NCBI GenBank assembly: GCA_963740085.1
Contig: CAVUCU010000004.1
Span: 384,001-448,000, forward strand
Origin: Nitrospirota bacterium
GTDB taxonomy: Bacteria; Nitrospirota; UBA9217
Direction: 5' to 3'
Length of the DNA stretch: 64,000 nucleotides
Shown here piece after piece: positions 2,424-59,908 of the stretch. Numbering within the stretch: position 1 is the first letter of the stretch; each line of letters starts with the position of its first letter. Below the pieces are notes generated by a model. It saw nothing but the letters and a program-made list of their open reading frames with translations, was not told the origin of the DNA and ran no database searches. A program made the position numbers and the translations under genes.

Positions 2424-2511
2424 AACATCGATCTATCAACGAATGTATGTATGTAAATCTCTCCCCATCAAAGTCGGCTCTTTGCCGATAGCGCACGATT
2501 TTTTCTTTTTT

Positions 2512-2692
2512 CTGCACCCCGGTTCACAATCCGCGCAGGCATGCCTTGCTGGTTCTGTTGACAAGCTTTTTCGAGTATCGCAGCGCTTCCCCTCGCCATG
2601 CAAACGGGCTCGGCCGCGTCTGCCTGGTTTTGTGATGGAATCGTTGATGACTGCATCCGCATGCTTGTGCGCGGGCTGTTCACGGGATGCAG
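2512..2692 (-). ncRNA. Candidate structured ncRNA, copy 1 (rod-like, 6S-like architecture, family unassigned)
   Basis: Homologous to 56723-56924(+). Closing stem CUGCAUCCC/GGGGUGCAG, inner stems CGCGCA/UGCGCG, GCAUGC/GCAUGC and GCAG-CGC/GCG-CUGC, with compensatory changes between copies. Confidence 0.55.
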
Positions 2693-2715
2693 GGGCCTCT
2701 GAACAGCGGGAATCC

Positions 2716-2751
2716 GAACCCTGGAACCCTGAACCCTGAACCCTGAACCCC
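2716..2751. repeat. Heptamer tandem repeat (GAACCCT)n
   Basis: About 5 imperfect copies just after the sbtM stop. Confidence 0.8.
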
Positions 2752-2758
2752 GACGGCA

Positions 2759-4367
2759 TTATCGAGGGGATTGATCGTGCAGAAAGCAGAAGGGGTCCTT
2801 GTCCTCAAAGATATTGAGTCCATGGCTGTTTGTACTGGCGAGGCATCCGCCGCAGACGGGGCGAATGGCGCATGTCCGGCACGCCGCGGTCCCCGTGCGA
2901 TAGCGTTTCGCCAATTCCGAATCATAGATCTCCGAGATGCTCTGCTCGTGGACATCGCCGATGGGCGAGGGAAATTTTCGGCAGGCATGAACTTCGCCAT
3001 CCGCGAGGAGCGTCACGAAATTGAATGCTGCGCCGCATCCGTAGCCGGTACAACCGCCGAAGAGTGCGACTATCATGTTCGTGGCGGATGATGTTGATGA
3101 GGTTGTCCTTGATCCCCATGACGGGGTTGGTTTTAGCAGCCTCGAGATATGATTGGAGAAAAGAACGGTAGTGCCGGGCTTCCGGTAAGAGAAGATTAGC
3201 ACCTTCGCCGACCATGGAGAGCCGGTTGAAATGGAAGGTATCCGTCTTCCCGCGGAGCACCTCGGCGAGCGGCAGTACCTGGTCGATGTTCCCGCTCGTC
3301 AGGGTGAGCATGACCATGGATGATACACCGAGCTCTCTGAGGACATCGAGGAAGGCCATGATCCGGTCAAAATGACCAGTGCCGCGGATACTGTCGTTAT
3401 GCTTCCGCAGACCCTCCAGGCTCACCTGGAAAAAAGCGGGCATTTGGACGGCGATCAATTCCTCGATCTGCTCCCGCGAAGCGGGATTGCCGAGGATCGC
3501 CGTGGTGAAGCCGCGCTCTGCGGCAGCGCGGTAGATCTCCGGGAACGCCGGGTGAAGGAGGGGATTGCCGCCCGTAAAGGAGACCGCGCCGGTGACGTTC
3601 TTATTCCTGCAGAACATGCGCAGATCATCCAGCACGCTCACTGCCTGGTCGAACGTCACGGGAGGCCGGTCGCTGCGGTCATAGCAATGCTTGCAGTGAA
3701 GATCGCAGGCCTGTGTGATGTGCCACTGAAGGGTGAAAGACGGCGATGAAAAAAACTGATCGGGGATCCCATTGCCGCGGTGAAAGACCTCGGGGTCCCG
3801 CCTGATAAGCGACGGCGGTGTGAGTACGAGACCGCGCGCCCATGCGCGGACGAGCGCACGATCAATAGCACCGACGGGCAGTTTCCCCTGCGTCGCGACG
3901 GTCTCCGGAGCTACGCGCTCAACGACCATTTTGAGGACAAGGAGGTCTTCGTCCGTCGCCGGCCGCGCAATTACGCGGCCGGTAAGGTGGTTGAAATAAA
4001 CGAGTAGGCGCTCCCTCGTTTGAACGGGAGGGTTGGAACCGCGCTGGTCATGACCAAGGAAAACGGCCAGGTTCTTCCACGAAACCTCGATGATCTGCAG
4101 CGTGGGGTTGATGCAGGATCGAGCGACCTCAGCAGGGATTGATCCCGCGTTTTTTTTGACGGAGAAGGTTGTTTCCTCTAAAAGGGCGAGGTCGGACAAA
4201 AATATCGGTATCGAGCGGTCATGCTGATGGGACAGCATTTTCGACAATGACTGTGCAGCGATCGCGCCGGCCCATTGCGTGGAGAAGCGGGCCCATGCTT
4301 TTTCGCCCAGGACATTTCGACATGCTCGATACCGGGTGTCAACGTTTTTGTCTGGAAAAGGGTCCAT
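2759..4367 (-). CDS. sbtM: SbtM-type thio(seleno)oxazole radical SAM/SPASM maturase, frameshifted near 3070
   Basis: LQWHITQACDLHCKHCYD rSAM motif in 2922..4367. SPASM part (FGGCTGYGCGAAFNF...ACRKF...CRTC..VCGGC..FC) continues in the 2759..3202 frame. Adjacent to an SbtA-type precursor. Confidence 0.85.
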
Positions 4368-56129: not shown

Positions 56130-56722
56130 TATTTGTTAGAAATTCTGTTTACTGATTATGTGTACTTACATGATTAGAACAAGATGATATCTATAGATTG
56201 TCGAAAAAGATATTTGGTTATTCGAATGGTGTAATGCGCTGCCGAAATGACGAGAGTGACAATTCAATGTGAAGTATTTGTCAGAATGCTCATTGTGATG
56301 TTGAATAATAAGTCAAAGAAGTTTTTCTGATATTAAAGCGTCCTTCATGTTATTTCAATGTAATATACCCCGTGTAGTCTGTCCGTTTGTGGGTACTTAA
56401 TTGCATGTTCGCTGTTAATTCTTCATTCAATCTGTTTCCCGAATGTTATCTAAGTTGGCGCTTGTCCCAGGTGTGCATTTATTTTTTTGGGCAGCTCATC
56501 ACTCGGCCACGCAGCATGCCGGGACAGATAGATATACAGTACCTCCACCCTGATATGCAGGACTCGCATCACTCCACCCTCGCCCTTTAAAAAAGGGCTC
56601 GGCCGTGTCTGCCTTGTCGTGTTCTTGTAACTATGATCTGTGCAGCATTGCCAGGCGTGTCTCTCGCGTCAGAGCTACCCGGCGCAGGGGAACGGCAGAA
56701 CTCTTTGCCTTTCCAGAACCCC

Positions 56723-56924
56723 CTGCATCCCATGAACAGGTTCGCGCACAGGCATGCCGAGGTAGAAAAGACCGAAGTTGCCACAAAGCCAGGCAGACAC
56801 ACCGTGCTCTTGCGATAACGCGGGTGCAGGCGGCCAATCTAAGGGAAGTGCTGCGAGATGCTCGAAAGGCTTGTTATCAGTACCGGCAATCATGCCCTGC
56901 GCGGAGCTGTGAACTGGGGTGCAG
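56723..56924 (+). ncRNA. Candidate structured ncRNA, copy 2
   Basis: Homologous to 2512-2692(-); same stems, longer apical insert, followed by an A-run and ATCGTG as in copy 1. Confidence 0.55.
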
Positions 56925-57032
56925 AAAAAAATAGGATCGTGACATGTGCCGAATGAGAAACAGATAAAAGCGACCCACACAAAACCCGGAAGACCCATAA
57001 TTGTAAGAGCATTATAACTTCACGATCTCATC

Positions 57033-57353
57033 TTATTTTCTGAATTTTGTGGCAAAGAGGCCAAGGCCCAACAGGCAACTGCCTAACAACAGCATCGTGC
57101 CGGGCTCAAGAACCTTCCTCACCATTTCAATATCTGTGCAAGATATAGAATATGATCTTGCCTCCCCGGCGCCCCCTATACCGTCCGCAACGATGAACGT
57201 CCCGTTTGGCAGGCCATCACGCGACCATTTCACACGAGAGTCAATATGTTGCGCGGAAGTGTCAATTAACAAGTTGTCAAAGTTCGCCCGTGCAGACAAA
57301 GGCATAATGAGAAATAATACAACCAATGCCGATACCCTTAATACTTTTATCAC
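57033..57353 (-). CDS. Small PEP-CTERM-like protein
   Basis: Signal peptide; C-terminal VLEPGTMLLLGSCLLGLGLFATKFRK (PEP-like motif, TM, basic tail). Confidence 0.7.
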   Translation of the reverse strand: MIKVLRVSALVVLFLIMPLSARANFDNLLIDTSAQHIDSRVKWSRDGLPNGTFIVADGIGGAGEARSYSISCTDIEMVRKVLEPGTMLLLGSCLLGLGLFATKFRK

Positions 57354-57655: not shown

Positions 57656-58510
57656 ATGAGAAAAAAAATATTCTTAATTGTATTTGTACTTTTGTTTGCG
57701 TCGACGGTATCGGCTGCTGATTATCTGATCGGGGAAGGAGATACGCTTATGATCTCCGTTTGGGGAGAGAAGGACCTGAGCCTCCCGGCGGTGATAGTCC
57801 GTCCCGATGGGAAGATCACGATCCCCGCCGTAGGCGAAGTTATAGCCGCTAATTCCACGGTAAAGGATCTTCAAACGACGCTTACCGGAAAAATCGGGAG
57901 GATCGTTAAAAACCCCATTGTGACAGTCATGGTCACTGGTATCACGAACAATAAGGTCTATCTGTTCGGAGGAGGCGTCAGCTCCCGTGTGTATAGTCTG
58001 ACCCAGAGAACGACACTGCTCCAGCTTCTGTGCCAGTTAGGAGATCAGCAGACCCCCGCGGACGGCTCAACCGGTGTTGCTGGAACATCCAATAGTGCTC
58101 GAGACGTTGATTTAAAGAACGCCTACGTGCTCAGAAACGGCAAAAAAATAAAGCAGAACTTTTACGATCTCTTCGTCGGCGGAAATATTGCCGAGGATGT
58201 GGTCATAGAACCGAACGATGTTGTTTTCATTCCCGGCTACAATGACAAGAATGTGTATGTAATGGGCGCCGTGAATACGCCACGGTCGATCACCTATCGT
58301 GATGGTCTTACCGTCATGGCGGCAATTCTCGAAGCAGGGGGATTCACGAAATACGCGAGCCAGAACGATACTACGATCTATCGGAAAAATGGCGCCCATG
58401 AGACCACGATAACCGTCAAGATAAAAAAACTGATCAATGACGGCGACCTCTCCCAGAACGCCCGTCTCCAGCCGGGCGATTATATTGTTGTCAAGGAAAG
58501 CATATTTTAG
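57656..58510 (+). CDS. Polysaccharide export protein (Wza/GumB-like, SLBB domains)
   Basis: YLIGEGD-L-I-VWGE..VRPDGKIT-P; VYVMGAV..AGGFT..LQPGD. Confidence 0.9.
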   Translation: MRKKIFLIVFVLLFASTVSAADYLIGEGDTLMISVWGEKDLSLPAVIVRPDGKITIPAVGEVIAANSTVKDLQTTLTGKIGRIVKNPIVTVMVTGITNNKVYLFGGGVSSRVYSLTQRTTLLQLLCQLGDQQTPADGSTGVAGTSNSARDVDLKNAYVLRNGKKIKQNFYDLFVGGNIAEDVVIEPNDVVFIPGYNDKNVYVMGAVNTPRSITYRDGLTVMAAILEAGGFTKYASQNDTTIYRKNGAHETTITVKIKKLINDGDLSQNARLQPGDYIVVKESIF

Positions 58511-58684: not shown

Positions 58685-59908
58685 GTGGAACAATCCGAGG
58701 GACTGGATATACAACGCTATCTTCAACTTATTTATAAACGGCGTTACCTTTTTGCACTCACCGCGGCCTTCATTATTACCTCAGTGATCATCATAAGCCA
58801 CTTCATACCGCCGGTTTATGAGGCTAAGACCGTGGTTGCCATTGAAAAAAGTTTTTTAAATGATGCCCTCAAGAATATCGGGGGAGCACAATCGATCGAT
58901 GACAGGGCTACAGCGCTTTCCACGATCATGAAGAGCAGGACCCTCATTGTAAAAGTGATCGGCGATCTCGGCATTGATATGAAGGGGTTGACCGAAGCAC
59001 AGGTTGAGGGTCTCATCAAGAGTACGCAGGACAGGACGAAGATCACGATCGAGTTCAGTCGGGGAGGCGGGAGTGATGTGGATTTTTTCACCGTTTCTTT
59101 TCGGGACCGGGACCCTCAGTTTGCAAGGGATTATGTGAATAGTGTGGTCAGCAAGTATATTGAAACGACCATCGGCTCCAAGAGATCGGACACATTCGGC
59201 GCAAACCGATTCCTCCTCGACCAGATAAACCAGTTCAAGGAAAAAGTGGAAAAATACGATGCAGAGATCGCGGTGCTGAAGAAAGACAATAATATTGTTC
59301 TGTATAACAGATACCTTAAACTGCAAAAGCGTCTCGATGATCTTCTTGTCCAGTACACGGAAAATCACCCTGAAGTGCTCAAAGTTAAGTCTGAGATCGA
59401 GGCGTATAAGGCGAAAGATGATATCTCTCCAAAAAAACTGGCGCACGTTTTGGATGCCAAGAACCGCCTTGCGATCCTTGAGCGCGATCGTGAATCCAGT
59501 AAAAAGATGTACGATGAAATGGCGGCGGCCTACAGTAAATCAGAGGTGTCTACGAAGGCGGAGTTGCAAGACAAGGCGGGTACATTCAGGATCGTCGACC
59601 CTGCAGTCTTGCCCATCAAGCCGGTCAGCCCAAACCGCATCAAGATCATCTTCCTGGGGATTGTTGGAGGGATCGCGGTCGCAACTGGTCTTATCATACT
59701 CCTCGATATCCTCGATGATTCTATCAAGAACGTTGATACGATCAAGAGTTTAGGCTTTCCCGTGCTTGCTATTATCCCGCATATTCAGAACCCTGATGAC
59801 ATGATCAAGTCGAGGAGAAAAGACATTTTCTTTTATACGCTATCCGGATTGTTTGTGGTGCTCCTGGGTGCGGTCATAGTTCTGGAAAAGCTCGGGTTGT
59901 TCGGTTAG
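58685..59908 (+). CDS. Polysaccharide chain-length determinant (Wzc N-terminal/GumC-like)
   Basis: N-terminal TM, YTENHPEV, coiled coil, FRIVDPAVLPIKPVSPNR plus TMs. Confidence 0.88.
   Translation: MEQSEGLDIQRYLQLIYKRRYLFALTAAFIITSVIIISHFIPPVYEAKTVVAIEKSFLNDALKNIGGAQSIDDRATALSTIMKSRTLIVKVIGDLGIDMKGLTEAQVEGLIKSTQDRTKITIEFSRGGGSDVDFFTVSFRDRDPQFARDYVNSVVSKYIETTIGSKRSDTFGANRFLLDQINQFKEKVEKYDAEIAVLKKDNNIVLYNRYLKLQKRLDDLLVQYTENHPEVLKVKSEIEAYKAKDDISPKKLAHVLDAKNRLAILERDRESSKKMYDEMAAAYSKSEVSTKAELQDKAGTFRIVDPAVLPIKPVSPNRIKIIFLGIVGGIAVATGLIILLDILDDSIKNVDTIKSLGFPVLAIIPHIQNPDDMIKSRRKDIFFYTLSGLFVVLLGAVIVLEKLGLFG

Follow-up and report, generated by a model that had tools for sequence, protein, structure and literature searches.

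REP/BIME, REPIN, ERIC and Correia repeats are intergenic, multicopy, imperfect palindromes of 35–130 nt, and roles in cis as terminators, insulators or stabilizers of mRNA 3′ ends have been proposed for REP and ERIC elements. The ends of ISL3-family elements typically begin with GGCTCTT and give 8-bp repeats, which in this study is confirmed only for the elements examined. IS110 elements have bridge RNAs (PMC11208160), and an IS110 transposase moves free sRNA modules (ssr9 of ISPpu9; PMC12288879). A literature search joining "Nitrospirota" with "intergenic repeat" returned no paper, and the papers found on ISL3 and MITEs, judged by title and opening lines of the abstract, do not deal with this Nitrospirota lineage.

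We analyzed a 64,000-nt stretch of DNA (hereafter the window) of a Nitrospirota genome (G000; 3.46 Mb, 7 contigs, 98.5% complete), in which a preliminary description had pointed out an unannotated structured element, present twice with compensatory base changes, as a candidate for a novel non-coding RNA (ncRNA) family: a paralog of 6S RNA, a protein sponge or an RNA-structured mobile unit, under selection for structure. The element is designated here as the rod, and its two occurrences in the window as copies A and B (Table 1). Our analysis leads to a different reading, to which we assign a probability of roughly 0.6, namely that the rods are a lineage-specific, mobile, hairpin-forming intergenic repeat of the REP/BIME/ERIC/MITE kind. 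The module is found singly (copy A is an example), preceded by a second, related rod family ("rod-2"), and in tandem arrays. One rod copy probably became, by insertion, the internal cargo of a non-autonomous ISL3-family MITE, which would account for most rod copies, copy B included. An ISL3 DDE transposase would move this MITE in trans, inserting it in AT-rich DNA with 8-bp duplications, and the hairpin would be kept for the propagation or stability of the element itself, as DNA or as read-through RNA, and not for a host function.

Table 1. Features of the two rod loci, in coordinates of the window
Feature	Position	Strand	Basis
Copy A, solo rod module of the older "A-type" subfamily, outside the MITE	2512..2692	−	Fold and homology limits
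3′ tail belonging to copy A, with A-rich linker, ATCGTG and a further ~40 nt	2458..2511	−	Alignment with the G001 ortholog
7-nt tandem repeat GAACCCT × 4.9, beside the 5′ side of copy A	2716..2750	.	Tandem Repeats Finder, score 61
ISL3-type MITE carrying copy B, ~625 bp	56370..56996	+	Homology; left end by eye, degenerate
Copy B, rod module as MITE cargo	56723..56924	+	Homology and fold
33-nt apical hairpin insert defining "B-type" rods	56799..56831	+	Present in 7/15 copies
Right terminal inverted repeat of the MITE	56971..56996	−	Exact 26/26 match to the consensus at G000:C4:440996(−)

Copies A and B are homologs, as had been claimed: the reverse complement of copy A aligns end to end with the forward strand of copy B (71% identity over ~190–211 nt, E about 4e-16 in BLAST), and the shared blocks named in the preliminary description are visible in this alignment. 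In the orientation proposed there, both copies fold into a rod whose two ends are paired, at −79.6 kcal/mol for copy A (z −4.17; none of 200 shuffled sequences was as good) and −84.6 kcal/mol for copy B (z −2.99; 1 of 200). When the whole window was compared with Rfam at gathering thresholds, two tRNAs only were returned and neither copy was matched; at E ≤ 10 the two copies gave chance matches only, without RF00013. The rods are thus new with respect to Rfam, and they are also non-coding, as proposed: the distances between the end anchors are spread evenly over the three classes modulo 3 (26/24/26), and therefore no reading frame is conserved.

The rods are much more numerous than the pair first described. 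Searching their own genome yielded 15 full-length copies of 181–202 nt and one 3′ fragment, which upholds the multicopy nature of the element but not the count of two, and many more copies exist in relatives, with matches (E ≤ 0.001) in 20 of 61 related genomes. These carriers include 19 of 36 genomes of the same family and none of 24 genomes across eleven other families of the phylum. The remaining 17 of the 36 same-family genomes show no rod, and carriers have between 1 and more than 25 copies per genome. In a collection of 185,579 species, 67 stretches contain an exact 21-mer of the 3′ arm, and all of them belong to MAGs whose titles read Nitrospirota, Nitrospirae, Nitrospiria or Nitrospiraceae. 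Within G000, all copies are intergenic, their orientation relative to the neighboring genes is not uniform, and the genes that flank each copy are different and mutually unrelated. For solo rods, nine loci revealed no shared neighbor gene. In G000, all 15 copies and the fragment lie on the two largest contigs (C1 and C4), and C3, C5, C6 and C7 (~1.06 Mb in total) are devoid of rods, a restriction that may stem from replicon structure, binning or chance.

The module is ~200 nt long: its two arms, strongly conserved, form ~27 bp with each other, and the remainder is made up of two variable segments and a stem-loop at the center. The apical insert that defines B-type rods is also found, 91–97% identical, at five non-rod places in G000 (C1:3097, C1:1497172, C4:499474, C4:539875 and C4:758981), and a palindromic module of ~33–45 nt lies inside rod-2 copies as well and, in the opposite orientation, forms a 46-nt insert in three of the aligned MITE copies. 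The insert looks like a separate small palindromic module, a tiny mobile hairpin. Tandem arrays of three to five rods with a period of ~430 bp occur in two related genomes, G004 and G005 (loci L123–L126; e.g., L124 2300–3400 and 5290–5970), and in these arrays the rods alternate with a conserved ~220-nt module that holds a hairpin with a perfect 12-bp stem. No plausible genes were found between the arrayed rods of these loci.

Copy B is part of a larger composite. Its homology to other copies extends beyond the rod by ~330 nt on the upstream side and ~75 nt on the downstream side; between window position 56388 and about 57001, homology to 8–10 other copies is 80–92%, and the rod itself is 93–96% identical to five other copies in G000. 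Most copies share these extensions. The composite is ~610–690 bp long and its ends are inverted repeats of ~26 bp, and the 26-nt ends are found at five complete and several partial copies in G000. Three of the five complete composites have perfect 8-bp duplications, one has a duplication that matches at 7 of 8 positions and one has none; the target duplications of MITE copies are AT-rich. In the composite of copy B the right end is exact, the left end is degenerate and there is no clean duplication, and the orthologous site in G001 lacks the MITE and holds 630 nt of unrelated DNA, with no clean empty site. The composite is the usual setting of the rod in that genome, where 19 of the 20 rods examined are inside it. 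The interior of the MITE is built of other repeat modules: the rod, remnants of the second rod family and a 45-nt hairpin. Two genes of an XrtA/PEP-CTERM system adjoin the MITE of copy B, one for exopolysaccharide export (57656–58510) and one for a chain-length determinant (58685–59908), and the C-terminus of a 106-aa ORF at 57033–57353 (−) resembles a PEP-CTERM sorting signal by eye, with no NCBIfam match.

A search for the ISL3 transposase (PF01610) found none in G000. The domain is present in 13 of 41 related genomes, and full ISL3 elements of 1372–1387 bp occur in G013, G014, G018, G041 and G046; perfect 8-bp duplications were found at four of the five elements examined. Overall, the ends of these elements differ from the MITE ends at 2–8 of 26 bases, with 6–8 mismatches to the left end of the MITE in the five genomes and only 2 of 26 bases different at the right end in G014 and G018. 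The preliminary description had named target-site duplications with a matching transposase as the mark of an ordinary MITE, and for copy B this is largely what was found: the terminal inverted repeats and 8-bp duplications are those of the MITE, and the matching ISL3 transposase is seen in relatives only. The mobile part of the proposed RNA-structured mobile unit is borne out to the same extent, copy B being MITE cargo. The negative search in G000 weighs against a mobile repeat there, where current mobility is putative.

Other candidate carriers were rejected. Four matches to PF01797 (Y1/RAYT-like) are present in G000, and neither end motifs within about 1 kb nor rod homology in the flanks were found near these genes; as no RAYT gene is flanked by rods in G000, a REPIN/RAYT system was discarded. 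A TnpB/omega-RNA system was likewise discarded, given that G000 has no PF07282 match.

Copy A represents the solo rods. Its homology to the other 14 copies ends within ~10 nt of its limits, and neither terminal repeats nor target duplications could be defined for it or for the other solo rods. The subfamily to which it belongs, called older, is 70–81% identical to the MITE-borne rods, and its members occur singly in several genomes, often preceded by rod-2, which is only distantly similar to the rod. An ortholog of copy A occupies the matching position in G001, downstream of the corresponding alcohol dehydrogenase gene, and the two are 84.6% identical across 247 nt (window 2458–2694). This value is about equal to that of the dehydrogenase gene itself (84%), and 35 nt beside the stop codon of the gene are unalignable between the two genomes. 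As far as sequence comparison goes, conservation similar to that of a gene next to unalignable DNA suggests a constraint beyond selfish decay. The counterpart of this locus in G003 is without a rod and is also rearranged, and the GAACCCT repeat beside copy A is missing from the orthologous locus in G001. The adjoining radical SAM gene (window 2759–4367, −) matches the SbtM profile (TIGR04082; thio(seleno)oxazole maturase) and is broken up into two ORFs that overlap in different frames, with profile positions 2–422 lying in 2922–4367 and 422–516 in 2759–3202. A frameshift near position 3066 of the window follows from this layout; a pseudogene, faulty assembly or recoding could each account for it.

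Pairing across the family was scored with a hand-drawn structure on a MAFFT alignment, which is not structure-aware, of 76 distinct rods, all full-length and drawn from 14 genomes. In this alignment, 84.7% of the cells pair, compared with 82.5 ± 0.2% after column shuffling (none of 500 shuffles reached the observed value), and pairing drops to 26–41% when the partners are slid. The closing helices P1–P3 are 96–99% paired and the inner helix 94%, with closing stems that are almost invariant in sequence; the values for P4 (45.9%) and P7 (56.1%) are not properly scorable because MAFFT shifts the register between the subfamilies. Both G-C/A-U covariations noticed between copies A and B hold up and reappear across the wider family, at columns 18–235 (AU 60, GC 12, other 4) and 96–158 (AU 42, GC 28, GU 2, other 4), and a third pair, at columns 83–174, alternates in the same way (AU 40, GC 21). 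Seventeen pairs are changed on both sides, compared with 10.8 ± 1.6 in shuffles (0/500), a signal that comes mostly from three pairs. On a tree built without the covarying columns, pair 96–158 requires about 10 changes between A-U and G-C with few intermediates; supported branches carry only three independent switches (sign test, p = 0.25), and the pattern could also stem from gene conversion between copies. One U-G pair is invariant in all 76 copies, where the other strand would read an A-C mismatch. New mismatches, counted with two founder U-G columns excluded, comprise 46 G-U and 35 A-C, showing no clear strand bias. With G-U and A-C changes similar in number, stems nearly invariant and three covarying pairs, the proposed selection for RNA structure stays putative.

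These data bear on the rival that fares best, which we consider possible though unlikely: the rod is a genuine structured ncRNA specific to this Nitrospirota lineage (e.g., a protein-binding RNA or sponge), the MITE captured and amplified its gene, and the solo copies are functional. The fold well below the shuffled controls, the three covarying pairs, one of which switches repeatedly, and the lack of a conserved coding frame speak for it. So do the invariant U-G pairs, which favor the strand proposed in the preliminary description, the sequence of the internal loops, which is conserved from genus to genus in unpaired blocks such as CACAAAG and GGGGAAG, and the retention of copy A at an orthologous site with gene-like conservation. 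The conserved loops, the switches at 96–158, the invariant U-G pair and the conservation of copy A also count against a mobile repeat, as does the want of a definable inverted-repeat or duplication signature in copy A and other solo rods. A function as a structured RNA keeps its minor share of probability mainly because the solo ortholog is conserved, the loops are conserved and one pair has been compensated repeatedly.

The signals expected around a gene argue the other way. No promoter was predicted near copies A or B in a scan that covers the sigma-70-like type, and no terminator was found after either rod in the rod's orientation. A sigma-54 promoter upstream of the rod, picked out by eye, was rejected since its elements are spaced one base too far apart and copy A lacks the motif, and a hairpin resembling a terminator, also plausible by eye and located in the 3′ tail of the solo rods, was rejected since RNAalifold gave no consensus pairs for 13 sequences. 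The sequences upstream of the solo copies are mutually unrelated. The near equality of G-U and A-C mismatches, the few well-supported switches of the best pair, and a copy number that varies so widely among genomes and falls to none in nearly half of the family also stand against an RNA gene.

A more far-reaching version, rather unlikely in our estimation, takes the solo units of ~250 nt (the rod and its conserved 3′ tail, often after rod-2) as the genes of a novel family of structured RNAs restricted to this lineage, in which the invariant arms and loops would bind a protein and the two hypervariable segments would give specificity. The MITE copies would then be hitch-hiking amplification, and the whole a mobile, possibly programmable RNA module. 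If the solo copies are transcribed and protein-bound, the family would constitute a candidate new class of bacterial ncRNA with an unusual mobile history.

We think it distinctly improbable that the rods are domesticated cis-elements, serving as bidirectional terminators, insulators or stabilizers of mRNA 3′ ends. Such roles would suit the intergenic position of every copy and that of copy A, 89 nt past the stop codon of the dehydrogenase gene, where the dehydrogenase strand holds two terminator-like hairpins in the rod and one at the gene end (three sites vs. 0.6 ± 0.7 in shuffled sequences). However, the region of copy B shows no excess of terminator-like sites (1 vs. 0.7 ± 0.7), the orientation of the rods to the neighboring genes varies, and gene-free arrays of three to five rods misfit a terminator role.

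One MITE copy outside the window, at C1:1497009–1499147 and with a perfect 8-bp duplication, has the only IS110-family gene of G000 in place of the rod. The element concerned, at G000:C1:1497236–1498796 (locus L107 1391–2951), is IS1111-like and encodes a 369-aa recombinase (PF01548, PF02371). It has subterminal inverted repeats of ~17 nt, a short left end and a right end of ~340 nt, and is inserted after ...TTAG in a rod-2 repeat within the ISL3-type MITE. The same IS lies at unrelated sites in G004, G007 and G020, preceded each time by a flank that ends in TAG: TTAG in G000, G007 and both G020 copies, TATAG in G004. Comparison of this locus with Rfam at E ≤ 10 gave chance matches only.

It is conceivable, and in our judgment very improbable, that the rod derives in miniature form from an IS110/IS1111 element, retains a bridge RNA (seekRNA) and is mobilized in trans by the one IS110-family recombinase that G000 has; such a unit would resemble the free ssr9 modules of ISPpu9. 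The replacement of a rod by the IS110-family gene in one MITE copy, a loose resemblance of the rod ends to the sequence around that gene and the precedent of sRNA modules moved by an IS110 transposase (PMC12288879) favor the idea. Against it, the five IS copies in four genomes share only the 1.56-kb unit and have unrelated flanks, and therefore the rod-like and rod-2 sequence around the IS in G000 is a mere target. Drawn in this way from the five copies, the boundaries of the IS leave both the rod and rod-2 outside, so that membership among IS110 bridge RNAs is largely refuted. Moreover, the IS has subterminal inverted repeats of its own and is present in 5 of 41 related genomes, compared with 20 of 61 for the rods.

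Last, the proposal of a 6S RNA paralog, suggested by a comparable length and a rod layout with a looser middle, is refuted as regards membership of the 6S family: RF00013 does not match copies A or B at E ≤ 10 and the canonical 6S RNA gene of G000 is located elsewhere, outside the window (C4:73917–74095, 104.9 bits with the RF00013 model), therefore the idea fails the test that defines the family, and there are at least 15 dispersed rod copies, the majority within a transposable element.

Reading the rods as a mobile repeat removes a false lead, as they are neither a 6S paralog nor a two-copy covarying RNA, and brings out a previously undescribed repeat system in uncultured Nitrospirota, which have been little studied, comprising an ISL3-derived MITE with a rod as cargo, solo copies, a sister rod family and arrays. 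Such repeats affect the assembly of MAGs, genome rearrangement and annotation. They can also supply hairpins, terminators and insertion targets; one IS110-family element landed in one of them.

Compared with known systems, the rods share with 6S RNA (RF00013) a length of ~190 nt and a rod-like fold, and differ from it in having no covariance-model match and in being multicopy and mobile. They recall IS110 bridge RNAs and ssr9 (PMC11208160, PMC12288879) as a structured RNA-like unit of ~180 nt with internal loops and a link to mobile DNA, and an IS110-family element does sit in one related repeat copy; unlike a bridge RNA, the rod lies outside the IS110 element as delimited by its five copies. 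The carrier of copy B resembles ISL3-family MITEs in its ~26-bp terminal inverted repeats beginning with GGnTCTTC, its 8-bp AT-rich duplications, its many copies without a transposase gene and the near-identical ISL3 ends in relatives, whereas the ~570 bp of its interior show no relation to the ISL3 transposase gene. From REP- and ERIC-type repeats the rods differ in size (~200 nt vs. 35–130 nt) and in their structured, three-part interior, and from REP/REPIN systems in that no Y1/RAYT-like gene of G000 is flanked by rods and part of the family is the cargo of a DDE-type MITE. With REP/BIME, REPIN, ERIC and Correia repeats they have in common that they are intergenic, multicopy, imperfect palindromes restricted to a lineage, with arms more conserved than the middle, an organization in mosaics and tandem arrays, and occasional compensatory changes that keep the hairpin.
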